The notes below the pieces were generated by a model. That model worked only from the letters and a program-made list of their open reading frames with translations. It was not told the DNA's origin and searched no databases. A stretch of DNA of 32,000 nt, from positions 2,040,001 to 2,072,000 of the forward strand of contig NZ_CP017260.1 in assembly GCF_001735745.1 (NCBI RefSeq), read 5' to 3'. Below are positions 1,332 to 31,373 of this stretch, piece after piece. Position 1 is the stretch's first letter, and every line of letters starts with the position of its first letter. A program made the position numbers and the translations under genes. Origin of the DNA: Formosa sp. Hel1_33_131 (GTDB lineage: Bacteria > Bacteroidota > Bacteroidia > Flavobacteriales > Flavobacteriaceae).

Positions 1332-1351
1332 GGGGTATTTCGCTAAGTCGG

Positions 1352-1433
1352 GAAATCGAAGATTCGACGCAGTCAAACTTTGCAAGAAATTGGTGTCACA
1401 CGAAGGGATAGACTTCGTCGAATCTTCGATTTC
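1352..1433. repeat. Long inverted repeat (hairpin) between convergent genes
   Basis: GAAATCGAAGATTCGACG (1352-1369) is the exact reverse complement of 1416-1433. The arms extend to 23 bp with one mismatch (1352-1374 / 1411-1433). There is no flanking T-run. Confidence 0.85.
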
Positions 1434-1448
1434 GTGCATGAACGGGCG

Positions 1449-1895
1449 TTAACTGGTTTGTTTTATTCTGCAAGAACATTCGTGATGCTCGTTAATGTAT
1501 TTAATTGATTCTATGCAGAGTTCTTTTAAAACCGAAATATTGATGTCAGAAAGTCTTTTCACATAAACACAAGCCTTTCCCATTTTGAATTTACCGAGTT
1601 CAGCTAATAATAATTCACTTTTTTTTGTATCAGAATAAACGTAGAGCGAGAACGCTACTTTTCTCGGTGAAAATCCAAGAACTGGCGCATCGCCTTCGTG
1701 TCCGCTTGCATATTTGTAATGGTAGTTGTCGAATCCGATAATTGTCGGCCCCCACATTTTGGGTTCAGCATTAGACCATTCCTGCATCAATTCGATCAAA
1801 CGAAAACTATCCACTTTTTTCTGTTCGTTATCAACGTATGAGTTTATGAAATCAGTGACGTTTTCTCCTGTGTAAGTTGTCTTTGTTTTGGCCAT
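1449..1895 (-). CDS. DUF1801 (YdhG-like) domain protein
   Basis: This is a 148-aa ORF. The N-terminal pattern VTDFINSYVDNEQKKVDSFRLIELMQE and the overall layout recall DUF1801 proteins. Recognition is from memory. Confidence 0.7.
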   Translation of the reverse strand: MAKTKTTYTGENVTDFINSYVDNEQKKVDSFRLIELMQEWSNAEPKMWGPTIIGFDNYHYKYASGHEGDAPVLGFSPRKVAFSLYVYSDTKKSELLLAELGKFKMGKACVYVKRLSDINISVLKELCIESIKYINEHHECSCRIKQTS

Positions 1896-1909
1896 AATTC
1901 CGATTTTGA

Positions 1910-2278
1910 TTATTGCCTTAAAATTTTTTCCATCTTTCTACCTTTTGCCAATTCATCAATTAGCTTTTCCATACGTCTGCATTGTTTATACAATTCAAAT
2001 TCATCCTCTATTTCTTCAATTCGATACCCACAAACGACTCCTTTAATCAAGTGTGCGTTTGGATGTATTTTAGCTTTTTGAAAAAATGTTCTAAAAGTTA
2101 CTTTATCGTCGATAAGTGCTTGTAATTTACCTTCATCAAATCCAGTTAACCATTCGATTACTTGGTTTAGTTCATCCTTGGTTCTTCCATTTTTTACCAA
2201 TCTATTCAGGTAAAGTGGATAAATAGATGCAAATATCATTTTTGCAACTTTTTCATTTTTTTCGGCTGTTACTTTCAT
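1910..2278 (-). CDS. DUF2200 domain protein
   Basis: This is a 122-aa ORF. MIFASIYPLYLNRLVKNGRTKDELNQVIEWLTGF matches my memory of the conserved DUF2200 N-terminus. Confidence 0.7.
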   Translation of the reverse strand: MKVTAEKNEKVAKMIFASIYPLYLNRLVKNGRTKDELNQVIEWLTGFDEGKLQALIDDKVTFRTFFQKAKIHPNAHLIKGVVCGYRIEEIEDEFELYKQCRRMEKLIDELAKGRKMEKILRQ

Positions 2279-2301
2279 CTTTATTTGATTTTGACTTATT
2301 T

Positions 2302-2352
2302 GGTGCTAACGCCGCGTTATACGCCGCGACGTTTTGGGTTTTGAGTTAAAGG
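2302..2352 (+). repeat. Cassette-boundary repeat, copy A (arm-spacer-arm core at 2308-2333)
   Basis: The core is AACGCCGCG / TTATACGC / CGCGACGTT, and the arms are complementary at 8 of 9 positions. It is ~81% identical to copy B over 47 ungapped positions (manual alignment). Confidence 0.8.
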
Positions 2353-2460
2353 CATCACGAATATGAGCGAAACAATGCCCGAGTGCACAGCAAACAAGGA
2401 CGTTATATGAAGCGAAAACGTCAAAGCACCGTAGAACCTGTTTTTGGAACGCTCACTCAG
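2353..2460 (+). pseudogene. Relic of a DDE transposase C-terminal region (IS1182/IS5-like)
   Basis: The in-frame translation ...GRYMKRKRQSTVEPVFGTLTQ carries the VEPVFGTLTQ motif typical of Bacteroidota DDE transposases. The fragment has no start codon, begins after a stop at 2347-2349, and loses similarity after 2460. Confidence 0.5.
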
Positions 2461-2622
2461 AAACTGGTAAGAAGTGAGGCAAAATCACTTGCTTTTGTTT
2501 TTTTTAGAAATACCCCTCTTTATAAAGGTGTTTTGGTCTAGCGTAAGCCCTTCGAAAAAACAATACAGTACACTCATTTTTTAGTAAGGCATCTCATACA
2601 TCGACTTGAAAAGGAAGATTTT

Positions 2623-3591
2623 TCACTTTTTTAGAGGACTTGTACAACGGTTACCGTTGTTATCACACGTCTTAGTCATTATTATTTTGTTATAACTATG
2701 TGTTTTTTTCATAATTGTATAGGGCATTATAATTCCAGAAATAGAATTTCTAACCAAATAAGAAGGCAGGCATAAAAGAATCATTTTAGCTAAAAATTTA
2801 TTTTTCAAATATTTTTTAGAACCTTTATAAAGTCTTTTAAGATTTGGCATAATTGCTAATGATTTATCTTCATTGGTGTTTATTTCAAAACCTTTTATTT
2901 TAGAGACTTCTATCCAATATGAAATCTTATGAAATTTATTTACAGCGAGAGCTTTTTCACATAATGACACACTTTCTTTCATTAAATGACTCTTACCTTC
3001 AATATCTGTAACTCTAAAAGCATCATAGATAATAAACTTACCTCCTTTTTTAAGAATTCTGTTAACTTCTTTCATCAAAATTTCTATATTTTCAGAATGA
3101 CAAAGAGTTTCCACTGCAAAAACTATATCAAAGGAATTATCATTAAATGGAATATCTTGAAAACTTCCATAATTAAAATTTAAATTATCAAATTGTTTCT
3201 CTTTTTTCTTCGCATAATTTAGCTGTGTTTCTGAAATATCAATACCATAAAACTTAGAAAAGTTGTGCTTTTCTGCTAATATTTTCGAGTTAAATCCTTT
3301 TCCGCACCCAAGTTCTAGAACTTTATTATTTTTTTTTACTAAGTGACTAATTTCAACTGCTTGTGTATAATACCCTTCAATATTATAAATTCCATCATAA
3401 TTTATAGCCATATGAACAGACCCTTCTTTTGAATGAAAGAGACTGAAGGCTAAGCTACTATATTTATAGTATTTCTTAATTATTGAATCATCAATTTTTT
3501 GTTTTTTAAAGGAATTCAAATTAAAAACGTTTTTAATGCTAATTAAATCGTTTAATAAATTATCTTCTTTCTGAAAATGTTTGTTATCCAT
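2623..3591 (-). CDS. Class I SAM-dependent methyltransferase
   Basis: It has motif I VLELGCGKGFNS and a post-I/II pattern (FYGIDIS ... FDIVFAVETLCH ... GGKFIIYD). The gene is very AT-rich; two 60-nt lines I counted were 22% and 32% GC. Confidence 0.85.
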   Translation of the reverse strand: MDNKHFQKEDNLLNDLISIKNVFNLNSFKKQKIDDSIIKKYYKYSSLAFSLFHSKEGSVHMAINYDGIYNIEGYYTQAVEISHLVKKNNKVLELGCGKGFNSKILAEKHNFSKFYGIDISETQLNYAKKKEKQFDNLNFNYGSFQDIPFNDNSFDIVFAVETLCHSENIEILMKEVNRILKKGGKFIIYDAFRVTDIEGKSHLMKESVSLCEKALAVNKFHKISYWIEVSKIKGFEINTNEDKSLAIMPNLKRLYKGSKKYLKNKFLAKMILLCLPSYLVRNSISGIIMPYTIMKKTHSYNKIIMTKTCDNNGNRCTSPLKK

Positions 3592-3612
3592 ATAGCTTGT
3601 CTGTTTGTATGT

Positions 3613-3662
3613 GTGGTAACGCCGTGCTATACGCAGTGACGTTCTGGTTTTTGAATTTATGC
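3613..3662 (+). repeat. Cassette-boundary repeat, copy B (core at 3618-3643)
   Basis: The core is AACGCCGTG / CTATACGC / AGTGACGTT. The 39-bp block 3624-3662 differs from copy C at only 2 positions. Confidence 0.85.
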
Positions 3663-3863
3663 ATCTTTGATGCGATTAATTAAAAAGACAAAAAATAGTA
3701 TCAAATTACGTTGTAGCGACTTGATATGCACTGTTTTGTTCGATACTACCTCAAGGTAATAAATAGCTATTTACCTAACTCCTACAACGACCGCTATTTG
3801 GTAGAGCGCGGCGATGAAGCGTAGCTTGTGTTAACTCCTGGCATTCTCATAAGCTTTGTTCTT

Positions 3864-5033
3864 TTAGTAATTTAATCCAAATGCCCATAGAGGAATTACG
3901 TTTAAGTACCCAAATTCAATATCATCCTTTACTACAAATGATTTTCCATCTTTCTCAATTTGTTTTTGGTGTTTGTTTTTACCTCCAACTTCAAACGTAT
4001 AATTATCAATGGAAAAATCAGCTTTTTTTGAAGAAATCACATCATTTTTAAGTCGCATTTGATTAAAGAAAAAGGTTTCTCGTAAATTTCCTGCATTTGA
4101 TTTTTCTCCAGCCAAATTAAAAATGATATTAGTATTATCTAAATAAACTTTATCAACTTTTCCCAATCCACGAATACCACTTGTGTCATTTCTCAACTGC
4201 CCTATAAGTCCCGCCTTTTCCATATAAGAGAAATAATCGTCTAAAGAATTTCTACTTACATTAATGATTTTTGAAATCTTGGAAAAATTAGGTTTAAATG
4301 GTACACTTTCAGCAATAATAGAAAGCAATTGTTTTAGCTTACGACTTGTTCCAACATTAAGGTTTGCATATTGTGGAATATCTGTTTCTAAGGTTTGTAC
4401 AATGATTTGTCCTAAACGTAAATTCATCTCACTTTCATTTCCAAAAGGATAGTATCCATTTAGTAGATAGTCATTAAATAATGGTAGCGGGTGTTTAATG
4501 TTTTCAAGTTTCACTTCGTTATTGATTATTTGTTCTAACGAATAAACTCCTATTTCGTAATTATGAAAATAGTTTAAATATTCCCGAAATGAGAGACCTT
4601 GTAATTTGTAAATTAAAGCACGGCGACTTAAGTCTGCTGAACCTTTTAGTATATCAAGAACCGACGAGCCTGTAAATACAACCTTTAAAGTAGGATATGA
4701 ATCATAAATATTTTTTAATTCACGCGACCAATCATTGTATTTGTGTATTTCATCGATGAATAAATACTCACCTGCATTTTTATAGAAGTCATCAGCCAAT
4801 TCAGTAAGTTTATTTTCACTGAAATACATGTCATCTGCAGATACATACAATGCTTTTTTATTGTCTAAATTTTCTTTGATATATTGAAGAATCATGGTCG
4901 TTTTACCAACTCCACGAGGACCAATAATTCCGACCATACGACTATCCCAAGAAATTTTCTCGTACAGATAACGTTTAAAATCTGTGGTTGTATTTTGTAA
5001 AAGTGTTTCAAATTTCTGATAAAGTATTCTCAT
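3864..5033 (-). CDS. AAA-family ATPase with a DUF4143-type C-terminal domain (COG1373-like)
   Basis: It has a Walker A motif GPRGVGKTT and a Walker B motif LFIDEIHKY. The length and C-terminal region are typical of AAA_14 + DUF4143 proteins. The gene is AT-rich. Confidence 0.85.
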   Translation of the reverse strand: MRILYQKFETLLQNTTTDFKRYLYEKISWDSRMVGIIGPRGVGKTTMILQYIKENLDNKKALYVSADDMYFSENKLTELADDFYKNAGEYLFIDEIHKYNDWSRELKNIYDSYPTLKVVFTGSSVLDILKGSADLSRRALIYKLQGLSFREYLNYFHNYEIGVYSLEQIINNEVKLENIKHPLPLFNDYLLNGYYPFGNESEMNLRLGQIIVQTLETDIPQYANLNVGTSRKLKQLLSIIAESVPFKPNFSKISKIINVSRNSLDDYFSYMEKAGLIGQLRNDTSGIRGLGKVDKVYLDNTNIIFNLAGEKSNAGNLRETFFFNQMRLKNDVISSKKADFSIDNYTFEVGGKNKHQKQIEKDGKSFVVKDDIEFGYLNVIPLWAFGLNY

Positions 5034-5054
5034 GGCTTCGCAAGTTATAGTTCA

Positions 5055-5062
5055 CAAAGATA
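5055..5062 (-). promoter_or_regulatory. -7 box TATCTTTG for the ATPase gene
   Basis: The minus strand reads TATCTTTG and matches TAnnTTTG. It is 22 nt upstream of the ATG at 5033. Confidence 0.5.
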
Positions 5063-5274
5063 CAAAATGCACATCGAAATCAACAATTATTTTAATTAAT
5101 GCTCAAACAGAAGTGCAATTAATTGTTTTTTTACTTGGATTGTCAATGACAAGAAAATAATAAACGTCAAACTTATTAGTGTGGTATATTTTCCTTTTGA
5201 ACTATTTTTAGCACCAAAAAAATGAGCCACTTTCTTTAGAACTTCCCCGTGATGTTTTCAGCCTTTTTTAGTTT

Positions 5275-5319
5275 ATCCCCGCGCTATACGCAGTGACGTT
5301 CTGGATTTTGAATTTATGC
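5275..5319 (+). repeat. Cassette-boundary repeat, copy C (core at 5275-5300)
   Basis: The core is ATCCCCGCG / CTATACGC / AGTGACGTT. The spacer, right arm and next ~19 bp are almost identical to copy B (one substitution). The left arm differs (7 of 9 identical to copy A). Confidence 0.85.
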
Positions 5320-5759
5320 GGTCTTATTAGTATATTTTTCATTCAACTTTCACTAATTTTAAACCTGTACTTTCCTGCAAACTGCCCACAGCTTCGCTAG
5401 TGAGAGTCCCATTTAAAAATAAAGAGACTCTACAAAGAGGTGCAATTGTCAGTGGCCCCTCATCTTACTTTTGGTCAAATGGCTTTTATGAAGATTCAGA
5501 TTTGGGGACTAAAATCAGTTAAACCTATAAAATAAATATCAAACACCCAAAAAAACATCAAATTTTAACATAAATAATTGATTGTGTTCAATTTATGTTT
5601 TAAATCATGAAACAAGAGTGAATTATGTTACAATATTTTATCGTCTTTATGTTCACAATAAGCCTGTATGAATTTGTTCATAATTATTAGTTGGTAGGGC
5701 CACACAAACCCCTAAATAGTTTTATATTTAGGATTCCGTTTATAGCTTATAACACACCT

Positions 5760-8700
5760 ATGTATTTAATTTTTGATACCGAAACTACCGGCTTGCCAAA
5801 GCGTTGGAATGCGCCCATTAACGACGTTGATAATTGGCCTCGCTGCATCCAGATTGCATGGCAATTGCATGACGACCTCGGAAACTGTATCGAGCATCAA
5901 GATTATTTAATACGCCCCGACGGCTTCAATATCCCTTACGATGCCGAAAAAATTCACGGCATCTCCACAGAATTAGCAACCGAGCAAGGTTTGGCACTTT
6001 CCGAAGTGTTGGAATTATTCAATGTCGCACTCTCCAAAACCACCTTTGTGGTAGGTCAAAATTTAGGTTTTGATTTGAACATTATGGGCTGTGAGTTTCA
6101 CCGACTGCAAGTTGCATCGCCTTTGAGTGAGCTGCCCGTTTTAGATACTTGTACCGAAAAAACCGCGTCCATGTGTCAGATTCCTGGCGGACGCGGAGGG
6201 AAGTTCAAATTGCCAACGCTGACGGAATTGCACCAGTTTTTATTTCATAAACCCTTTGGAGAGGCGCACAATGCCACCGCTGATGTAGAAGCCACTACCC
6301 GTTGTTTTTTAGAATTGATTCGACGTAAAGAATTTACGATTGACAAGCTGCAAGCAACCAACGATTATTACGAGCGCTTTCAGTTAGAAAATCCAGAGGA
6401 GATCACTCCGATTGGTTTAAAACATGTCAACCTCAAACAAGAATCCGCTAAAATTGCGGCGCGAATCCAACAAGAAAAAGAGTCGGTAACTCCTCAAAAA
6501 ATTACGACGGAAGTTCCGGAAATCCTCAACGATGCGGAAGTGGTACATTTGCATAACCATTCTCAGTTTTCAGTCTTACAATCGACCATCAGTATCAAGA
6601 ATTTAGTTGCCGCAGCATCGGATAATGAGATGCCAGCCGTCGCCCTTACCGATCATGGAAACATGATGGGAGCCTTTCATTTTGTCAAAGAAATAGGCAA
6701 CTATAACAGAGACATTCGCGAAAAAAATAAACTTGCCTTAGAAGCTAATGAACCTGCGGATGCACAAGAAATTAAAGGAATTGTAGGCTGTGAATTTTTC
6801 GTCTGTGAAGACCATACCAACAAATCTCAAAAAGACAATGGCTACCAAGTCGTCTTTTTAGCAAAAACCAAAAAAGGCTATCACAACTTAGTAAAAATGT
6901 CGTCCAAGGCCTATACCGATGGTTTTTATTATTTACCAAGAATTGACCGAACTATCGTCGAAACCTACAAAGAAGATTTAATTGTTCTGACGGGAAACTT
7001 ATACGGCGAAGTGCCATCCAAAATATTAAATGTTGGCGAGCGTCAAGCCGAAGAAGCCCTCTTGTGGTGGAAAGAGAAATTTGGAGCGGATTTGTATGTG
7101 GAGCTCATGCGCCACAAACAAGAAGATGAAGACCGTGTCAATCCTGTTTTGATCAGTCTCGCCCAAAAACATGCCATCAAATTAGTAGCAACCAATAACA
7201 CCTATTACATCAATCAAGAAGATGCCAATGCGCATGATATTTTGTTGTGTGTAAAAGATGGCGAAAAGCAAGCCACCCCCATAGGTCGTGGTCGTGGATA
7301 CCGTTATGGATTGCCAAATCAAGAGTATTATTTCAAATCTTCGGAGGAAATGAAGTCACTTTTTAAAGATGTTCCCGAGGCGATTGTGAACATTCAAGAA
7401 GTGGTCGATAAAATTGAACCTTATGAATTGGCACGGGATGTTTTACTACCGAAGTTCGACATTCCTCAAGAATTCGTCAATCCAGCGGATGCTGTGGATG
7501 GCAGTAACTTTGGTGAAAATGCGTATTTAAGACATTTGACTTATATAGGGGCCGAAAAACGCTATGGAGAACTCACAGATGACATAAAAGAACGTCTTGA
7601 TTTTGAGTTAAAAACCATTGAAAACACCGGCTATCCAGGGTATTTTCTAATTGTAGAAGATTTTATTCGGGTGGCACGTTCCATGGATGTATCGGTAGGA
7701 CCCGGCCGTGGATCGGCAGCAGGTTCTGTGGTTGCCTATTGCCTTTGGATCACCAATATTGACCCCATCAAATACGATTTACTTTTTGAGCGTTTCTTAA
7801 ATCCAGATCGTGTGAGCATGCCCGATATCGATATTGATTTTGACGATGAAGGCCGTGGTCGCGTCATGGATTATGTCATCCAAAAATATGGATCGAGTCA
7901 AGTGGCTCAAATTATTACGTATGGTACGATGGCTGCCAAATCGTCTATTAGAGATACCGCTCGAGTATTGGATTTACCATTAGGAGATGCCGATCGTATT
8001 GCGAAGTTGATTCCCAATATGGCGAAGCTGCACAAAATTTTTAACACCCCTGAAAAGGAGTTGAAAGCGAAATTCAGATCCGAAGATATGGAGCTGATCA
8101 ATCAGTTGCTCAATTTGTCCGATGGCGACGACTTGGAAGCTGAAACGATCAATCAGGCGCAAGTGTTGGAAGGTTCGCTTAGAAATACAGGAATTCATGC
8201 TTGTGGGGTGATTATTACGCCCGGAGATATTACCAATTACGTACCCATTGCCACCGCCAAAGATTCCGATCTTTACGTGACCCAGTTTGACAACTCCGTG
8301 GTAGAAGATGCAGGACTGTTAAAAATGGATTTCTTAGGCTTAAAAACCTTAACACTTATAAAAGACACTGTTAAAATTGTCAAAGCAAAACACGACATCA
8401 CACTGGATCCCGATCATTTTCCGTTGGATGACGAATTGACTTATGAATTATTCCAACGCGGGGAGACTGTCGGTGTATTTCAGTATGAATCTCCGGGAAT
8501 GCAAAAGCACATGCGAGACTTGAAACCCACTGTTTTTGCAGATTTAATTGCAATGAATGCCTTGTATCGACCGGGTCCAATTGAATACATTCCTAGTTTT
8601 ATTCGTCGGAAACAAGGCGATGAAGAGATTAGCTATGACCTTCCAGAAATGGAAGAATACCTGAAAGAAACTTATGGGATTACGGTGTACCAAGAGCAAG

Positions 8701-11665: not shown

Positions 11666-11739
11666 GGTTTGGTAGTTCAGTTGGTTAGAATACCTGCCTG
11701 TCACGCAGGGGGTCGCGGGTTCGAGTCCCGTCCAGACCG
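11666..11739 (+). tRNA. tRNA-Asp (anticodon GTC)
   Basis: The cloverleaf folds by hand. The acceptor stem is GGTTTGG/CCAGACC with one G-U pair. The anticodon arm is CCTGC-CTGTCAC-GCAGG and the T arm is GCGGG-TTCGAGT-CCCGT. The discriminator is G and CCA is not encoded. Confidence 0.93.
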
Positions 11740-11763
11740 CTAAGTATCTTTCAAAAGATGCAT

Positions 11764-11859
11764 ATAGTAAATAAGACGTTGTGTTGTGATAATCAAATGA
11801 TTATCCGTGGTTTGTGACAAACCAGTGAGAAGCTTTCCTGAAAATGGAGGGCTTTTTTT
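11764..11859 (+). repeat. 96-bp element ending in a terminator-like hairpin, copy 1 (paired with 13699-13793)
   Basis: An ungapped manual alignment at offset 1935 gives 70 of 86 identical positions. This includes an identical 25-mer, GTGAGAAGCTTTCCTGAAAATGGAG. The hairpin AAGCTTTCC/GGAGGGCTT is followed by a T-run (11828-11859). Confidence 0.8.
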
Positions 11860-12012
11860 ATTTTGTACAGTCTTTGTACAGTGAAATAATGTCTATTTCC
11901 ATTTTACAATCTTCGAAGTAGTATGCTTATATTATAGATGAATTTTAGTCTATTGAGAGATCCTCTCCGTGAAATTTAGCATTATTTATATTGGGTTTAC
12001 AACGATATATTA

Positions 12013-12020
12013 TATATTTG
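12013..12020 (+). promoter_or_regulatory. -7 box TATATTTG upstream of the first fic gene
   Basis: It matches TAnnTTTG and lies 113 nt upstream of the ATG at 12133. Confidence 0.45.
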
Positions 12021-12024
12021 CACT

Positions 12025-12120
12025 AATTAATAATAATCACACAGCGTTAATTAATAACTATAACACAACATCAAATAATAATAATCACACAACAGTAATT
12101 AATAATATTGTCACGAATTT
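12025..12120 (+). repeat. AT-rich ~48-bp tandem duplication in the fic leader (TAATTAATAA / AATAATAATCACACA modules)
   Basis: The 15-mer AATAATAATCACACA occurs twice, ~48 bp apart. TAATTAATAA-type modules occur three times (12025, 12048, 12096). The two units are roughly 75-80% identical by manual alignment. Confidence 0.7.
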
Positions 12121-12132
12121 AATTTAAAAAAA

Positions 12133-13677
12133 ATGGCAACTCCAGGAGAGAAATTAGCAAAATCATTAGAAAAACTAAAGGCGATACAAGATCGAGGTTT
12201 GATTGCGATAAAAGCATCTGATTTAACCAGAGGACATAGAGAGCGGTTGGTTAAAAATGGATTTATTCGAGAGGTCATTAAAGGGTGGTATCTTGTAGCT
12301 CCTCATGATACACAAAAAGGAGATACGACTTTCTGGTACTCTTCTTTTTGGGGGTTTTGTTCAAGATATTTAGAAGATCGTTATGGGGATGATTACTGTG
12401 TGTCAGCGGAACAATCTCTTTTGCTTCATGCCGGAAATAACGCTGTCCCAACACAACTAATCATACGCTCCTCAAAAGGAAATAATTCACCCACTTCTTT
12501 ATTATTTGGCACCTCTTTATTTGTCATGAAATCGCCTTTACCAAATATTGCTGAAATAGAAGAAAAGCACGGTATTAGAATTGTGAACCTGCCATCATCT
12601 ATAGTACATTCTACACCTTCAATATTTACCAGACAAGCGATAGAAGTGCGAACAGCATTACTAATGATTAAAGATGCTTCTGAACTATTAACTATTCTAC
12701 TTGATGGGGGACATTCTACTATTGCAGGCAGATTGGTTGGTGCTTATAGAAATATAGGACATGAAAAGATTGCGGACACTATTTTAAAAACCATGAAATC
12801 GGCTGACTATGATGTTAGGGAAACGGATCCATTTGGAACATCTACACCAATTAAGCTTGATTTAAGGGAGCGTTCACCTTATGTGAATCGCATTAAATTG
12901 ATGTGGGAAGCCATGAGAAAAGATGTCATAGACGTATTTCCAAAAGCTACGGGGATGTCGAAAGATGCGAATGCCTATATGAAGGGTATAGAGGAAATCT
13001 ACACAACAGATGCTTACCATTCTTTATCTATAGAACGATATACCGTAAGCATTGAATTAATTGAACGCGTGAGAAGCGGTGCGTGGGATGCAAAAGAGAA
13101 TGAAGCAGATCGTAAACAAAAAGATGCCATGGCTGCACGGGGTTATTGGCAGGCATTTAAGGCTGTAAAAGAAAGTGTAATTCAAATTTTAACAGCTGAA
13201 AATTCAGGAACAGTAGTTGATAGAGATCATGGAGATTGGTATCGAGAATTGTTTTCTCCTAGCGTCGCAGTTGGTTTACTGAAAGTTTCAGATTTAGCTG
13301 GATACAGAAATGGACAGGTTTATATAAGCCAATCCAAACACACACCCATAAACAAAGAAGGTGTCCGTGATGTCATGCCGTTGCTCTTTGAATTATTGGA
13401 AAATGAAAAAGAGGCGAGCGTAAGAGCCGTATTAGGGCATTTTATTTTTGTATATACACATCCATATATGGATGGTAACGGACGTATGGGGAGGTTTTTA
13501 ATGAATACTATGCTTGCTTCTGGAGGCTACCCTTGGACTGTAATCCCAGTTGAAGAACGGGATAGATATATGAATGCTCTAGAGCATGCTAGTTTTGGTC
13601 AAGATATAAAACCATTTGCTGAATACTTGGCCTATTTGGTGGGTGCTGGATTAAAGGGTGAGCCAATAGCTAAGTAG
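12133..13677 (+). CDS. Fic family protein with an N-terminal AbiEi-like wHTH region
   Basis: The Fic motif is HPYMDGNGRMGR. The upstream helix SLSIER is a variant of the inhibitory motif [ST]xxxE[GN]. The N-terminal DLTRGHRERLVKNGFIREVIKGWYLV resembles the AbiEi-type wHTH pattern, recognised from memory. Confidence 0.85.
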   Translation: MATPGEKLAKSLEKLKAIQDRGLIAIKASDLTRGHRERLVKNGFIREVIKGWYLVAPHDTQKGDTTFWYSSFWGFCSRYLEDRYGDDYCVSAEQSLLLHAGNNAVPTQLIIRSSKGNNSPTSLLFGTSLFVMKSPLPNIAEIEEKHGIRIVNLPSSIVHSTPSIFTRQAIEVRTALLMIKDASELLTILLDGGHSTIAGRLVGAYRNIGHEKIADTILKTMKSADYDVRETDPFGTSTPIKLDLRERSPYVNRIKLMWEAMRKDVIDVFPKATGMSKDANAYMKGIEEIYTTDAYHSLSIERYTVSIELIERVRSGAWDAKENEADRKQKDAMAARGYWQAFKAVKESVIQILTAENSGTVVDRDHGDWYRELFSPSVAVGLLKVSDLAGYRNGQVYISQSKHTPINKEGVRDVMPLLFELLENEKEASVRAVLGHFIFVYTHPYMDGNGRMGRFLMNTMLASGGYPWTVIPVEERDRYMNALEHASFGQDIKPFAEYLAYLVGAGLKGEPIAK

Positions 13678-13698
13678 GTCTAAGTTAAAAAAGTACAA

Positions 13699-13793
13699 AT
13701 AGTAAATAAGAAGTAGTGTATTGACAATAAAACGATTACATGTATTTCGCGACAAGCCGGTGAGAAGCTTTCCTGAAAATGGAGCTTTTTTTT
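13699..13793 (+). repeat. 96-bp element, copy 2
   Basis: See copy 1 (11764-11859). This copy starts 22 nt after the fic1 stop and ends in a hairpin plus a T-run. Confidence 0.8.
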
Positions 13794-13885
13794 ATGTTCA
13801 GCCCTTTCCCAAGTCTACATACTCTATAGTTGTACTTAATGCGGGACAAAAAGTCACATATTACTTTTATTTGAACTATTTTTTG

Positions 13886-13893
13886 TATTTTTG
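13886..13893 (+). promoter_or_regulatory. -7 box TATTTTTG for the second fic gene
   Basis: It matches TAnnTTTG and lies 28 nt upstream of the ATG at 13921. Confidence 0.5.
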
Positions 13894-13920
13894 GTACACA
13901 TAATAGTCATTAGAGATAAA

Positions 13921-14994
13921 ATGTCCGATAACAAGAAACTTGTAAAACTTCCTCCAAAAAGAGAGAAAGTAGAAACAATTGAAATTCTTCGTCAATTGAG
14001 TAAATCTTCAAATTCATTAGGAGAATTAAAAGGAATTGCTAAAACTATTCCTAATCAGGAAATGTTAATTAATGCAGTTGTTTTACAGGAAGCTAAAGAT
14101 AGTTCAGAAATAGAAAATATTATTACAACTCAAGATGAACTATACAAAGCTCTAGCAACAAACACAAAACAACCAACTCAAATTAAAGAGGTTATAAATT
14201 ATAGGAGTGCCATTTTTTCAGGTTTCGAGTTAATGAAAAAACAAGGGTTTTTAAAGTTAAAGGATATTGAAACAATTCAAAAAACCATTATCGAAAATAA
14301 TGCAGGAATTCGCTCAATGGCTGGAACTGTATTAAAAAATGATAAAACTGGAAAAATTGTCTATACTCCACCACAAGAAAAAGACGAAATTTTAGATTTA
14401 TTAGGTAATTTCTTAGAACATTTTAATGTTAAACAGAATGATTTAAACCCATTAATTAATTTAGCAATTTTACATTATCAGTTTGAAAGTATTCACCCTT
14501 TTTATGATGGAAATGGAAGGACAGGAAGAATTCTAAACATTCTATACTTAATTATAAACGATCTTTTAGACATTCCTATTGTATATTTAAGTTCATATAT
14601 CAACGAAAATAAAGCAGATTATTACCGTTTGCTAAATACAGTTAATAACACAAACGAATGGTCTGAATATATAATTTATATGCTGAAAGCTGTTGAAGTA
14701 ACATCAAACAGAACTATTGAGAAAATAAATTCTATAAAAATACTATTAGATGAAACTATACTATTTGCACAAGAAAAAGAACCGAAAATTTATAGAAAAG
14801 AATTAATTGAATTACTATTTGAACAACCGTATTCTAAAATAGAGTTTGTAGTAGAAAGATTAAACGTTGAGAGAAAAGCTGCTTCAAGATATTTAAAAAA
14901 AATGGAAGAAATTGGAATATTAGCTTCTCAAAAAATTGGAAGAGAAAACGTCTACGTAAACACAAAATTGATAGAAATATTGAAAAAGCACTAA
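13921..14994 (+). CDS. Fic family protein, class II architecture (Fic_N + Fic + C-terminal wHTH)
   Basis: The Fic motif is HPFYDGNGRTGR. SSEIEN is a canonical in-cis inhibitory motif. The C-terminal RYLKKMEEIGILASQKIGRENVY is wHTH-like. I prefer the ATG at 13921 to the TTG at 13891. The gene is AT-rich. Confidence 0.9.
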   Translation: MSDNKKLVKLPPKREKVETIEILRQLSKSSNSLGELKGIAKTIPNQEMLINAVVLQEAKDSSEIENIITTQDELYKALATNTKQPTQIKEVINYRSAIFSGFELMKKQGFLKLKDIETIQKTIIENNAGIRSMAGTVLKNDKTGKIVYTPPQEKDEILDLLGNFLEHFNVKQNDLNPLINLAILHYQFESIHPFYDGNGRTGRILNILYLIINDLLDIPIVYLSSYINENKADYYRLLNTVNNTNEWSEYIIYMLKAVEVTSNRTIEKINSIKILLDETILFAQEKEPKIYRKELIELLFEQPYSKIEFVVERLNVERKAASRYLKKMEEIGILASQKIGRENVYVNTKLIEILKKH

Positions 14995-15199
14995 GTACAA
15001 CAAGCCGTGTACAATTAATTGCTTTTGTTCCAGCTTACTTACGAAAATCCTACCGGATTTTCTACCTTGCCTGCGGCAGGCAGGTTCGGTTTGTGTTTAC
15101 TAAATTAGGTACTTGAAATACGCAACCAATCATACACAAATCCGTTAAACAAGTAGATATATAAAGTTAAAAATATTAGCGTCATTACCAAATAAACGC

Positions 15200-24570: not shown

Positions 24571-24920
24571 TAAAATGCATTTTCAATATGCTCCAATTCA
24601 GAACCTTGATCTGTGAGTACAATCGCGATGATATCAAAACGCACTTCAACTTCTAAATCTCTGGACGTCACAAAATAATCCACTGTTTTGATAATGCGTT
24701 GTATTTGTGCAGGTTTCAGAAATTCTTCGGGCGCTCCAAAGTCGGAAGTACTCCGGGTTTTGACTTCTACCGCTGCCAAACAGTTGTCTTTTTGTGCCAA
24801 AATATCCACCTCGCCTTTTAGATAGCGAAAGTTTTGCGCTAAAATCCGATAGCCTTTAGAGATCAGATACTCCACCGCCATGCCTTCTCCAGAAATACCA
24901 CGATTGTAAGAATCAGACAT
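24561..24920 (-). CDS. yraN: YraN family (UPF0102) endonuclease-like protein
   Basis: It is 119 aa. GEGMAVEYLISKGYRILAQNFR...GEVDILA...VEVKTR is the YraN signature. Confidence 0.88.
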   Translation of the reverse strand: MSDSYNRGISGEGMAVEYLISKGYRILAQNFRYLKGEVDILAQKDNCLAAVEVKTRSTSDFGAPEEFLKPAQIQRIIKTVDYFVTSRDLEVEVRFDIIAIVLTDQGSELEHIENAFYHF

Positions 24921-25074
24921 TGTTATTTTTTTAGAAAATCATAGTCGCGTTCTACTTTGGCAATACGCACTTTGTACTGGCTATACCATGTTTTTTGTCC
25001 TTTAATCTGTGCTTTTTGATGGTCCAAATTGTCTTTCCAGTGTTTGATGGATTCTACATCGCGCCAATAGGATA
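24873..25074. repeat. 202-bp direct repeat, left copy (yraN codons 1-16, 2-bp spacer, last ~50 codons of the ABM gene)
   Basis: It reads identical to 26800-27001 (offset 1927) in my base-by-base comparison. The boundaries are set by the first mismatches on each side. Confidence 0.9.
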
Positions 25075-25312: not shown

Positions 25313-26650
25313 TTAATATTCATAGCCTTCTACATTAATAACATACTTCGTAGCCCTTCCATTACCAATTTTTTTAAACATTTTAAATTCAACAAGTTCT
25401 TCAATATCCCTTAACACAGTCCTGTCTGTAATATCAAACATCTCTCTATAAGTCTTATTTGTTATAACTTTATTTTCCTTAATATATCGAATCGCTTTTA
25501 CTTGCCTCTCATTGAGGTCTAATTTCGATAAATAGTGTTCGTTGTAAATATCCTTAAATAGGGTTACAGTTACACCACCTTGCCGCTCTTCAATAAGTGG
25601 CTCTAACAGTCCATAGTTTTTGCATTCTTCAATTATTTTCAATGTGCCACGACCCCAAGCTTCAATATGCCCTCCTTTATAAAACACATTTGCCATCAAT
25701 CTATTTCTAGGAATTGAACGATGGTCTTTCCACAAGTCATCAAGAGTCAAACTTTCTGGCAGTTCTCCAAAATTTGAAATAGAAATTCTATCATTATAAA
25801 CCTTTACAGTTATCGGAGAGATTCCGTATTTTTTGTGTATGATTGCGTTAAATAAAATTTCTCGAATGGCATCGTATGGATACTCTGGCGGTTCTTTTCT
25901 GCTAAGCCCTTCATATTTAATATTTCTAAAAATGTATTTCGAATTGAGTAGTTCAAGTGTCTTGTCCGCCAATTCAAAAGCATTGGTTTCAACAACGTCT
26001 TGAGTAATTAAATCTGACGGTGAATTGCCGAACTTACCTATTTTCAAATAGGCAGTAGTGTAATATCGTTGTGGATTTTTCCCGAACAATAACAATGCAG
26101 CTCTGGTATACCTACCACTTTGGTTAACTAATTCAAGTTTTCTCAAAACAGTTTCTGTATCGGTATCGTAACCAATCGAGGGTAATCTTCCGGTATCAAT
26201 GGCTTTCTTTTTAAAGGATTCGACAGCCTCAAGATTAATATCTTCAATAGATGCGTTATCCATAGTGACAGCATCCCACGTCAGGTTCTTTTTCTTCAAC
26301 AAAAAATCTTCTAAAGCGGTACTATTTAATAATTGATTCGTACTACCGCTTCTTAAGTAGAATTTCCCTTTATATGACACAGGAGAGGAAAATGATTCAA
26401 CTGCTATTTCAATAAAATAGTTATCGTTTTCTTCATGTAAATTCACATCACAAACAATACCAGTCGTATCTTTAATTTTGTTAGGCAACTCGTCCATAAG
26501 TTTTTTATACTTATCAACTCCAACTACATTTCCATTGTCATCTTTACCTACATATAAAACACCACCATTGGCATTAGCAAATCCACTAATCCATTGCAGA
26601 TATTCATCTCGCCACGATTGTTTCCATTCTATGTTTTGTTGTTCAGGCAT
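25313..26650 (-). CDS. AlbA_2/Schlafen-like domain protein with an HATPase_c_4-like region and a C-terminal wHTH (COG2865-type putative regulator)
   Basis: The N-terminus EWKQSWRDEYLQWISGFANANGGVLYVGKDDNGNVVGV is the AlbA_2 signature. The C-terminus LNERQVKAIRYIKENKVITNKTYREMFDITDRTVLRDIEELVE is a wHTH. Confidence 0.85.
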   Translation of the reverse strand: MPEQQNIEWKQSWRDEYLQWISGFANANGGVLYVGKDDNGNVVGVDKYKKLMDELPNKIKDTTGIVCDVNLHEENDNYFIEIAVESFSSPVSYKGKFYLRSGSTNQLLNSTALEDFLLKKKNLTWDAVTMDNASIEDINLEAVESFKKKAIDTGRLPSIGYDTDTETVLRKLELVNQSGRYTRAALLLFGKNPQRYYTTAYLKIGKFGNSPSDLITQDVVETNAFELADKTLELLNSKYIFRNIKYEGLSRKEPPEYPYDAIREILFNAIIHKKYGISPITVKVYNDRISISNFGELPESLTLDDLWKDHRSIPRNRLMANVFYKGGHIEAWGRGTLKIIEECKNYGLLEPLIEERQGGVTVTLFKDIYNEHYLSKLDLNERQVKAIRYIKENKVITNKTYREMFDITDRTVLRDIEELVEFKMFKKIGNGRATKYVINVEGYEY

Positions 26651-26799: not shown

Positions 26800-26847
26800 C
26801 ACCGCCATGCCTTCTCCAGAAATACCACGATTGTAAGAATCAGACAT
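26800..26847 (-). pseudogene. Duplicated 5' fragment of yraN (codons 1-16) running into insert sequence
   Basis: MSDSYNRGISGEGMAV is identical to the start of the intact yraN. The frame then continues into unrelated sequence and stops at 26737. Confidence 0.8.
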
Positions 26848-27001
26848 TGTTATTTTTTTAGAAAATCATAGTCGCGTTCTACTTTGGCAATACGCACTTT
26901 GTACTGGCTATACCATGTTTTTTGTCCTTTAATCTGTGCTTTTTGATGGTCCAAATTGTCTTTCCAGTGTTTGATGGATTCTACATCGCGCCAATAGGAT
27001 A
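26800..27001. repeat. 202-bp direct repeat, right copy
   Basis: It reads identical to 24873-25074. Confidence 0.9.
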
Positions 27002-30364: not shown

Positions 30365-30404
30365 AAAGTGAACGCCACGCTTTAGCGTGGCGTTCACTTT
30401 TTTC
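30365..30404 (+). terminator. Rho-independent terminator of metG
   Basis: The stem is a perfect 16 bp, AAAGTGAACGCCACGC / GCGTGGCGTTCACTTT, with loop TTTA, followed by a T-run. Confidence 0.9.
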
Positions 30405-30691
30405 ACCACCCCAGACCTCCGTAGCTCATGCGTTTCCCTTACCAAAAGTAAGGTAATAAAACGCTTAAAATCAGGGGTTTGAAAACAAAAAAATCCCGTT
30501 CCGTCCATTATTTGCCCGTTTATTACGTCAATCAGCTGTTTGTTACATAGTGTTTTTATATTTTGGATTTAATTGCTTAATTGTACTTGAATTTGTAAGG
30601 TAAATTCATTTCAGATAAAAAAGTCTCTCCATTAATTTGGAGGGGCTTTTTTTGTGGATTCCGTTTGGAGAAAGAGTCGCAAAAATTAACA
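30405..30691 (+). repeat. 287-bp direct repeat, copy 1
   Basis: It is near-identical to 31087-31373 (offset 682). The exceptions are a ~12-nt divergent patch (30503-30515), a few substitutions, and two compensating 1-nt indels near the end. Confidence 0.9.
30617..30653 (+). terminator. Terminator-like hairpin inside repeat copy 1 (its twin is at 31299-31335)
   Basis: An A-run precedes the stem AAGTCTCTCC/GGAGGGGCTT, which includes G-U pairs. The loop is ATTAATTT and a T-run follows. Confidence 0.6.
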
Positions 30692-30726
30692 TCAGTCTTA
30701 CGCTCTAGCTCTCTTTAGTCTTGATT

Positions 30727-31036
30727 CTTTGTTCTTTCCATTTTCATCTTCATACTTCATACTCGATACTTAGTACTCTTTAGTCTTTACTCTCTTTTCT
30801 ATTCTCTCTTTTCTATTCTCTCTTTTCTATTTTCTATTTTCTTTGTTCTTTCCATTTTCATCTTCATACTCGATACTTAGTACTCTTTAGTCTTTACTCT
30901 CTTTTCTATTCTCTCTTTTCTATTCTCTCTTTTCTATTCTCTCTTTTCTATTTTCTATTTTCTTTGTTCTTGATTCTTGATTCTTTGTTCTTTCCATTTT
31001 CATCTTCATACTCGATACTTAGTACACTTTACTCTA
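30727..31036 (+). repeat. Pyrimidine-rich nested tandem repeat (~114-121-bp units, ~2.7 copies, with an internal 14-bp TCTCTTTTCTATTC array)
   Basis: The units start at 30727, 30841 and 30983. Unit 1 has 2 perfect 14-mers and unit 2 has 3. Unit 1 has an extra 7-bp CTTCATA. I counted only 16 G in the 360 nt from 30721 to 31080. Confidence 0.9.
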
Positions 31037-31086
31037 TTTTCTTTCCTCCTCAAAATTCTTCATTTTTAACTTTTCGTTTTCCATTT

Positions 31087-31373
31087 ACCACCCCAGACCT
31101 CCGTAGCTCATGCGTTTCCCTTACCAAAAGTAAGGTAATAAAACGCTTAAAATCAGGGGTTTGAAAACAAAAAAATCCCGTTCCTTACACTATATGACCG
31201 TTTGTTACGTCAATCAGCCGTTTGTTACATAGTGTTTTTATATTTTGGATTTAATTGCTTAATTGTACTTGAATTTGTAAGGTAAATTCATTTCAGATAA
31301 AAAAGTCTCTCCATTAATTTGGAGGAGCTTTTTTTGTGGATTCTGTTGGATGAAAGAGTCGCAAAAATTAGCA
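31087..31373 (+). repeat. 287-bp direct repeat, copy 2
   Basis: See copy 1. This copy contains two perfect CCGTTTGTTAC 11-mers (31198-31208 and 31218-31228). Confidence 0.9.

Follow-up and report, generated by a model that had tools for sequence, protein, structure and literature searches.

The 32,000-nt stretch of the Formosa sp. Hel1_33_131 chromosome studied here (contig NZ_CP017260.1, positions 2,040,001 to 2,072,000; referred to as the window) contains three direct copies, A, B and C, of a short repeat. These copies are probably the 3′-terminal recombination sites of mobile gene cassettes that make up a decayed integron-like array. The evidence documented below comprises a family of such sites, the sharp boundary of their conservation, cassette polymorphism at the sites, the association of a recombinase with the arrays and the deletion of the integrase gene in the window. 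An earlier, sequence-only reading of this DNA had proposed that mobile cassettes built up at a single chromosomal location, with the repeats marking their limits; this proposal held up, and the integron is the closest analogy. In what follows, L-numbers denote comparison contigs, P-numbers denote integrase proteins and "gene direction" is the minus strand of the window.

Repeat Copies in the Window

The search for repeats yielded one three-copy direct-repeat family, confined to a single 3-kb island and absent from the other 27 kb of the window. The positions (Table 1) agree with those given earlier to within 1 nt. Copies A and B are spaced by 1310 bp and copies B and C by 1657 bp; identity to B is 78% for A and 91% for C. 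The 39-bp block shared by B and C differs at two positions, and the arms of A, AACGCCGCG and CGCGACGTT, are complementary at 8 of 9 positions, both as first described. The 22-mer GCTATACGCAGTGACGTTCTGG occurs exactly twice in the 32 kb, with 0.00 occurrences expected from 100 shuffles. The R′ triplet context is GTTAGCA in A and GTTACCA in B; in C, the terminal GGCGTT has decayed to GGGGAT, and the GTT is lost. The next minus-strand ATG lies 29 nt from A (ATG 2278) and 26 nt from B (ATG 3591), closer than the 33–36 bp stated originally, and the distance from C to the ATPase ATG (5033) is 240 nt.

Copy B forms the end of a longer element, the terminal inverted repeat of which, CGCCGTGCTATAC and GTAGAGCGCGGCG, is complementary at 11 of 13 positions (13 of 13 in the L103 counterpart). 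This long form is 78–90% identical over 180–200 nt to sequences in L093, L094, L095, L098, L099/L103, L100, L104, L105 and L107. An attC-like long hairpin was considered for the 194-bp element and rejected: the minimum free energy structure pairs the ends, yet the z-scores are only −1.3 and −1.6. A search against Rfam (gathering threshold and E ≤ 5) gave no match in the repeats, in the long form of B or in the head region described below, the only real hits being a tRNA and the S16 leader.

Repeat Family and Its Boundary

The element is present outside the window, as the cassette interpretation demanded. A degenerate pattern of the repeat matched 16 marine metagenome loci, always in arrays, and together with the window these loci give at least 21 distinct copies of the family, termed family 1. 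The pattern had no matches in viral contigs, and the repeat was not found in any of 80 related dnaE loci. Over the 21 distinct copies, the information content is high across AATTCAAAACCCAGAACGTCACTGCGTATAGCGCGGCGTT in gene direction and drops directly past GTT plus a purine. The conservation edge reads ...GCGCGGC/GTTR (the slash marks the edge), and GTT(R) corresponds to TAAC at the left end of each copy in the window. The claim that homology continues up to the ATG was therefore abandoned, since conservation collapses right past this point; the variable gene start usually lies 10–35 nt beyond the edge. Both arms are conserved in the wider family, which does not support the drift of one arm noted earlier, and copy C is a decayed fusion copy.

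Upstream of the core, the arms differ between copies. An arm of about 150 nt, closed by a 13-nt inverted repeat, yields the 194-bp long form (B and about ten others), a second ("type-2") arm adjoins A and is also present in L097 and L102, and one copy has no arm at all, its core abutting the stop codon of a DUF1016 gene. The genes that precede the copies are unrelated, and the gap between stop codon and copy varies from 0 to about 200 nt.

Cassette Gain and Loss between Relatives

The array is located between dnaE and a DUF6252 gene that adjoins rpsP. As predicted, related strains and species show the presence or absence of cassettes at the sites. The same rpsP–dnaE locus in L094 (87–93% identity) contains other cassettes, each bounded by a core (four cores, one degenerate), with a 479-aa ATPase gene, a DUF1016 gene and two small genes in place of the cargo of the window. 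L102 shares copy A, which is identical in both, and the DUF2200 start at 100% identity, and its upstream cargo is different. Contig L107 equals L093 with a 778-bp insertion that consists of one 222-aa methyltransferase gene and an identical 64-bp site duplicate. In these comparisons (L107 vs. L093; the window vs. L094 and L102), the presence/absence junctions fall at the conserved GTT, the exceptions being the C-type copies and the pair L095 and L100. The DUF2200 cassette is preceded by different cores, one variant in the window and L102 and another in L094; therefore, the core moves together with the cassette that precedes it. Like attC, a site is the 3′-terminal part of its upstream cassette and does not belong to the gene 3′ of it, to which it had been assigned.

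Two relatives represented by Helgoland metagenome-assembled genomes, L012 and L013, have DnaE N-termini 94% and 86% identical, respectively, to that of the window. In the comparison with L012, homology ends at window position 1334 and resumes at 5376, and the interval 1335–5375 is swapped for 2.4 kb of other genes, which include the last 80 codons of a tyrosine recombinase. With L013, homology resumes only at 5705; this contig has an empty site, in which dnaE and the DUF6252 gene are separated by a terminator and some 100 bp in all. In these alignments, the sister species differ only inside the island.

In L093, an 85-bp direct repeat (3966–4050 and 6497–6581) flanks a 2.4-kb two-gene segment that is not in L107, and near this repeat, at 3931–4014, lies a sequence similar to the 3′ end of the integrase gene.

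Recombinase Platforms and the attI-like Site

In related contigs, a tyrosine recombinase family is associated with such arrays, as had been supposed. The recombinase fragment of L012 led to L108, where the head region (designated X), a conserved sequence that adjoins dnaE in the window, precedes a tyrosine recombinase gene of full length. Two nonsense codons interrupt this gene, and the second of them (TAG) lies in a stretch matched 100% by L111. Further downstream, a palindrome overlaps the integrase stop codon and is followed by ...ATATACACTA/GTTAGCG. The 85-aa integrase fragment used as a query gave mostly fragments, and the repaired full-length L108 sequence was used instead. Its intact homologues are P0121 (94% identical) and P0130, P0131 and P0145 (55–60%).

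The intact platforms L113, L117 and L121 feature the recombinase gene upstream of the cassettes and in the same orientation. The order in L117 is dnaE, X, integrase and cassettes (PhzF and so on); in L121–126 it is secA, X, integrase, a 178-aa cassette, an attC-like site of a second family (family 2) and MarR. Platform L114 sits after argH, L114–116 representing one integrase lineage, and L127–129 (Marinilabilia) sit after yidC and continue with small genes and a type III restriction-modification system. The integrase is decayed in L108 (two nonsense codons), L112 (1.5-kb insertion), L012 (last 80 aa remaining) and L096/L106 (last 24 aa). The insertion in L112 (1491–3019) carries a gene for a leucine-rich repeat protein with a type IX secretion system tail, and the integrase of this contig also contains a stop codon and a frameshift.

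Four integrase lineages, 55–94% identical to the L108 sequence (L108/L113/L012, L117, L114–116 and L121), have an attI-like sequence, ATATACAsTA/GTTR, that overlaps or follows the stop codon of the gene. Contigs with the same or a 94%-identical integrase diverge right past ...ACACTAGTT (L108 vs. L113), and L114/115 diverge from L116 right past ...ACAGTAGTTG. One 190-nt cassette start is found after the attI-like site in L108 and after a family-1 core in L099/L103, with 81–82% identity.

The integrase scores 233 bits with NF040815, the XerA/"integron integrase" model, and so passes its cut-off of 220, and about 198 bits with the XerC and XerD models. It stays below the cut-offs of the IntI models (209.7 vs. 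265 for TIGR02249 and 143 vs. 435 for NF011946). The protein aligns colinearly with XerA structures (PDB 4a8e and 5hxy), and the catalytic R, K, H-x-x-R, H and Y residues are visible in the alignment. In the alignment with VchIntIA (2a3v), query residues 270–291 stand opposite residues 179–243, leaving about 43 residues unmatched at the position of the IntI-specific domain. In addition, the integrase carries an extra N-terminal domain of about 85 aa. To judge from these matches, the recombinase is XerA/Xer-like, without the IntI-specific insertion, and is not a true integron integrase.

Head Region and Loss of the Integrase Gene in the Window

Head region X aligns over its full 441 nt (78%) with the dnaE–integrase intergenic region of L117–L120 and partly with L113, L108, L112 and L114–116, as well as with L094, L097, L012, L092 and L106; it is not in the empty site of L013. 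The alignment contains conserved blocks and one possible G·U-compatible stem, and X could hold the promoters of the integrase and the cassettes or a regulatory RNA. A small-RNA gene serving as an integration target was considered and set aside because X always precedes the integrase gene and is more simply taken as its upstream region. Within X (window 5376–5560), the blocks AGTCCCATTT ... TGAAGATTYAGAYTTGGGG are strongly conserved between lineages and chromosomal settings (L012, L092, L094, L097, L106, L108, L113, L117 and L121).

In the window, positions 5316–5342 encode integrase codons 1–9, MKNILIRPH, which run straight into copy C; the corresponding integrase N-termini are MKTILLRPH (P0130) and MKTIQLRPQ. 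A tblastn search with the intact integrase found no other trace of it in the window. Since X and nine codons are kept and there is no other integrase trace, the window array is a platform minus its integrase, the gene having been lost from codon 10 onward. The C-type variant with the same downstream leader also occurs in L094 and L097/L102, and the fusion in L097 keeps 14 integrase codons. No other recombinase open reading frame of at least 150 aa is evident in the 32-kb window, in agreement with the first description, so any activity must come in trans. The attI-like site is not in the window, where the integrase gene is deleted.

Second Site Family and Common Geometry

Cassettes downstream of the intact integrases end in elements of about 135 nt with complementary ends, GTACAAC...GTTGTAC, and inner boxes, GTATAT...ATATAC. 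The bottom strand of this family-2 element folds end to end (z = −3.0). The corresponding ends in Marinilabilia are GGCACATAAC...GTTGTGTGCC, and these elements are also attC-like. Family-2 elements share arrays with family-1 cores in L092, L093, L100, L103 and L105. Family 1 and the attC-like families share one geometry, a TATA-containing box, 6 nt and GTT, and three unrelated site families with this geometry are found inside single arrays.

A family-2 site is also present in the window itself, at 14997–15149, where it matches a profile of the sites after cassettes downstream of intact integrases (nhmmer, E = 2.2 × 10^−32) and folds with z = −2.5 and −2.7.

Proposed Mechanism and Alternative Explanations

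An intact platform consists of the conserved head, a gene for an Xer/XerA-type recombinase, the attI-like ATATACAsTA/GTTR and mostly co-oriented cassettes of one or a few genes, each cassette ending in a site whose last conserved bases are GTT. The recombinase would exchange strands at or within about 6 bp of this GTT; a cassette would leave as a circle and be taken up either at the attI-like site or at the end site of another cassette. In the window, the integrase gene is deleted and its stump is fused to a copy C without GTT, which would make this array a fossil resembling a cluster of attC sites lacking integron integrases (CALIN), in which only a paralogous recombinase acting in trans, or homologous recombination from site to site, could still rearrange the cassettes. 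From the comparison of arrays we infer that recombination actually occurs and that the recombinase acts on family-1 sites; the cleavage point given above and the nature of the substrate, duplex or folded single-stranded, are likewise deduced.

Several observations weigh against the integron-like reading. The family-1 hairpin is short (26 nt) and its stability is not significant, with DNA-fold z-scores on the gene strand of −1.8 (A), −1.1 (B) and −0.8 (consensus) and of +0.1 on the opposite strand; conservation in family 1 is at the sequence level, with almost no covariation. The C-type copies break 6 nt before GTT, and L095 and L100 share nine extra bases past GTT before they diverge. None of the examined contigs has an intact integrase directly followed by a family-1 site, and the link between the recombinase and family 1 is indirect, running through shared cassette starts, the head region, common arrays and the GTTR junction. 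The integrase is a pseudogene at four platforms, so the system may be largely extinct in this lineage. Furthermore, the support comes throughout from the comparison of assemblies, partly of short-read metagenome contigs. As the repeat pattern has no match in 185,579 representative genomes, mis-assembly of metagenomes at the repeats could be the source of part of the apparent polymorphism, although the long-read contigs L002–L007 show the same arrangement as the window.

Each of the rival explanations fits fewer observations than the integron-like reading. It is unlikely that the repeat is a passive intergenic element, a terminator or leader, and that the cassette differences arose by RecA-dependent recombination between repeats of 45–200 bp with no dedicated recombinase. 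The absence of a recombinase from the window and the death of several platform integrases would suit such an element, and the 64-bp duplicate in L107 is identical and long enough for rare homologous recombination. However, 21 copies agree in having the conservation edge at this one GTT, the GTTR junction recurs at the integrase 3′ end, where core homology is nil, and three unrelated site families share one geometry within single arrays. The copies do resemble G+C-rich hairpins followed by T-runs on the plus strand, yet no plus-strand gene reads into this "terminator", and the hairpin of that strand has a z-score of +0.1.

Decidedly improbable is the use of the sites by host XerC/XerD or an unrelated recombinase, as with integrative mobile elements exploiting Xer (IMEX) and pdif modules, the platform integrase being incidental. 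This idea gains from the lack of an integrase in the window array and from the Xer-like nature of the platform integrase itself (scores given above), as Xer proteins might recognise similar sites. It conflicts with the position of the junctions, which are not in a 6–8-bp centre between two 11-bp arms. The sequence-only reading had placed a Xer/dif-like exchange in the TATAC spacer, and the observed junctions are 10–12 bp from this spacer, where the first arm has its outer end (GTT); in C-type copies they are 6 nt inward of that end. Moreover, pdif modules have inverted pairs of sites and the present sites are direct repeats, four lineages have the attI-like site physically linked to the stop codon of the integrase gene, and the more distant Marinilabilia platform has a different, attC-like cassette end.

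We give very little credence to B being a miniature inverted-repeat transposable element (MITE) of about 194 bp, with A and C as truncated copies and the intervening genes unrelated. Target-site duplications were not found, the copies have one orientation relative to the flanking genes, and the short copies always keep the same end. They are clustered in arrays, with none in the other 27 kb of the window or in the 80 related loci. These points outweigh the terminal inverted repeat of B (11/13, and 13/13 in L103), the approximately ten near-full-length copies in different contexts and the transposase relic adjoining A, which is a separate polymorphic insertion.

Finally, descent of the copies from the 3′ end of a duplicated open reading frame (peptide [IF]NSK..RI[AT]R) can be dismissed almost entirely: all three copies read in one frame, but they do so because the DNA is conserved, they lie 0–200 nt past the stop codons of unrelated genes, and in C the frame simply continues from the integrase start codon across the site. 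The particular variant in which the repeats derive from the integrase 3′ end, brought up by an NSKT in the L012 integrase fragment (GHGNSKTTEIYT), was ruled out by the DNA comparison, in which the integrase 3′ end and the core do not align, and by the tblastn search with the intact integrase, which finds nothing of this kind in the window.

Cassette Genes and Organization of the Array

In gene direction, the array consists of C, the ATPase gene, B, the methyltransferase gene, A and the DUF2200/DUF1801 cassette, all on the minus strand (Table 1). The same layout of co-oriented genes, each with its own site at the 3′ side, is found in L094, L097/L102, L103 and L107. The A–B interval, described earlier as holding exactly one gene, contains a 221-bp transposase relic in addition to the methyltransferase gene.

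Table 1. Coordinates of the array components and of the family-2 site in the window.
Feature	Position	Strand	Description
Copy A	2307-2352	(−)	Family-1 site variant; ends GGCGTT/AGCACC; best hairpin, with a 9-bp stem including one T·G pair
Copy B, long form	3617-3810	(−)	194-bp element with 3′-terminal core 3617-3662
Copy C	5274-5319	(−)	Family-1 site joined to what is left of the deleted integrase gene
Head region X	5320-5759	(−)	Homologous to the sequence that separates the integrase start from dnaE (or secA) in intact platforms
ATPase cassette leader	5034-5273	(−)	Part 5059-5273 common to other cassettes
AAA_14/DUF4143 ATPase gene	3864-5033	(−)	Pfam; PADLOC PDC-S01, E = 3.7e-28; ~30% GC
Class I S-adenosylmethionine-dependent methyltransferase gene	2623-3591	(−)	Pfam; PADLOC mad2, partial match, E = 1.7e-20; 25-28% GC
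Type-2 arm upstream of A	2353-2622	(−)	Variable; homologous to arms in L097 and L102; split by the transposase relic
Transposase relic	2357-2577		221 bp; C-terminus remnant KRKRQSTVEPVFGTLTQ...; inside the type-2 arm
Last cassette	1449-2278	(−)	DUF2200 (1910-2278) and DUF1801 (1449-1895) genes (Pfam)
Terminal hairpin	1338-1440	(−)	Type-2 arm and core remnant ...ACTGCGT; putative degenerate fourth site, assignment uncertain
Family-2 site	14997-15149	(+)	attC-like, R″ GTACAAC ... R′ GTTAAAC; follows the SoFic gene

The leader of the ATPase cassette is 92% identical over 257 nt to L097 (64–320) and L102 (758–1014), and window 5187–5319 matches the DUF1016 cassette leader of L094 and L097 with 84% identity. 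The GC-content of the ATPase and methyltransferase genes is 25–31%, against about 41% in the flanks. The exact methyltransferase protein was found in 165 assembly-index blocks, with the same context in all 10 among the matches listed. The cargo looks defence-related, with the PDC-S01 ATPase and the methyltransferase in the array and SoFic elsewhere in the window. The DUF2200/DUF1801 cassette is present in L094 behind a different core variant and is not in L012 or L013.

The transposase relic is flanked by an imperfect 17–18-bp direct repeat, TTTTGAGTTAAAGGCATC and TTTTTTAGTAAGGCATC, and is polymorphic in the population: most contigs have it, and L006 and L009 do not. At the end of the array, between the convergent DUF1801 and DUF6252 genes, lies a 23-nt inverted repeat (1352–1374 and 1411–1433; 96% complementary). 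The arm of this terminal hairpin recurs beside cores in L097, L102 and L106, and the hairpin probably doubles as a bidirectional terminator.

Other Features of the Window

The family-2 site of the window closes a second island (11666–15149). This island begins with a tRNA gene (11666–11739), followed by 109-nt repeats (11750–11858 and 13685–13793; 78%) that flank a gene for a 514-aa Fic-domain protein, and continues with the SoFic defence gene (13891–14994; PADLOC, E = 3.5 × 10^−108).

Further along, direct repeats of 202 nt with 100% identity (24873–25074 and 26800–27001) flank one minus-strand gene for a protein of 445 aa (25313–26650). The 202-nt repeat covers the beginning of a small host gene together with a portion of the adjacent one; the arrangement therefore suggests the insertion of a single gene, with duplication of 202 bp of coding sequence of the host. 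The S16 gene (63–683), which varies in length between contigs (206–216 aa), encodes a long Ala/Glu/Val-rich C-terminal tail with internal repeats, and an S16-Flavobacteria leader is located upstream of it, at 688–722. Downstream of metG are two 290-nt repeats with 95% identity (30402–30691 and 31084–31373), between which tandem repeats spaced by 14/21 nt occupy positions 30670–31042.

Significance

Whether marine Flavobacteriaceae, and probably other Bacteroidota (Marinilabilia), own an analogue of the integron is, in our estimate, an evenly balanced question; such a chromosomal platform for gene capture would have a XerA-like tyrosine recombinase without the IntI insertion, co-oriented with the cassettes, would use several families of cassette-end sites, the compact one of the window among them, and would stockpile anti-phage defence genes. 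Integrons are considered nearly absent from Bacteroidota. No description of an integron-like system in Flavobacteriia or Bacteroidota was found in the literature searched, which is not proof of absence. Integron activity is thought to depend on the IntI-specific domain, which reads the extrahelical bases of folded attC sites. If the proposal is true, integron-style capture evolved or persists without the domain thought essential for attC recognition; if the system is active, it would widen the integron concept and provide a natural experiment on what cassette recombination requires. Some of the variation in gene content between strains of abundant, bloom-associated marine flavobacteria would also be accounted for, including their turnover of defence genes. 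The system would be open to testing through homologous integrases of cultured Marinilabilia and Draconibacterium, and searches relying on the IntI-specific domain or the canonical attC model may overlook such arrays.

Comparison with Known Systems

Repetitive extragenic palindromes and bacterial interspersed mosaic elements are present in tens to hundreds of dispersed intergenic copies per genome; the window has three copies of the repeat in 32 kb, in one island. Of MITE features, the long form has terminal inverted repeats, and the family shows no target-site duplication, a fixed orientation and clustering.

By family models and structures, the platform integrase is matched best by archaeal XerA and bacterial XerC/XerD; it differs from them in heading variable cassette arrays rather than serving chromosome dimer resolution, and in its extra N-terminal domain. 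The arrays resemble the IMEX and pdif modules that use Xer/dif recombination in that the recombinase is a small member of the Xer family, the chromosomal sites are short, each module holds one or a few genes and action in trans is possible. In contrast to these modules, there is no 11-6-11 site with central exchange (two inverted 11-bp arms and a 6–8-bp centre); the sites are direct, not inverted, and are tied to their own recombinase gene and to housekeeping flanks (dnaE, secA, argH and yidC) instead of the terminus dif.

The likeness to integrons is the most extensive, above all to sedentary chromosomal integrons and to the minority that have intI co-oriented with the array (Treponema type). 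It includes a recombinase at the head with a tied insertion site, co-oriented, mostly single-gene and promoter-poor cassettes each with its own site, a junction at GTT plus a purine, heterogeneous site families in one array, cassettes without open reading frames and a cargo rich in toxin–antitoxin, defence and unknown small proteins. The co-oriented array and cassette presence/absence at GTT are found here, as is, in related platforms, the attI-like site beside the integrase. Integron cassettes have been linked to defence (bioRxiv 10.1101/2024.07.02.601686). The differences concern both the enzyme and the sites. The window has no integrase, and the recombinase of the homologous platforms lacks the IntI insertion, scores below the IntI cut-offs and carries about 85 aa more at the N-terminus, as an extra domain. 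In family-1 sites, sequence is conserved over about 40 nt and the hairpin measures 26 nt, in contrast to attC sites, which are defined by structure: imperfect palindromes of 57–141 nt with R″ RYYYAAC, R′ GTTRRRY and a single-strand hairpin with extrahelical bases. Copies A, B and C do not have this structure, and family 1 matches only the GTTR of GTTRRRY when compared by sequence and fold. For Bacteroidetes, IntegronFinder 2.0 reported a single complete integron, that of Salinibacter ruber, and otherwise nothing but In0 elements (PMC9024848).

Among integron-derived structures, the window array is most readily set beside the CALINs, in which at least two attC sites occur with no integrase within about 4 kb; the window has three or four sites and no integrase in 32 kb. 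CALINs are defined by matches to the attC covariance model, whereas the window is likened to them by layout only. Like a CALIN, it is an array of cassette-end sites without an integrase, from a platform that has lost this gene, and it differs in that the loss is directly visible in the window, where the head region and nine codons are kept.

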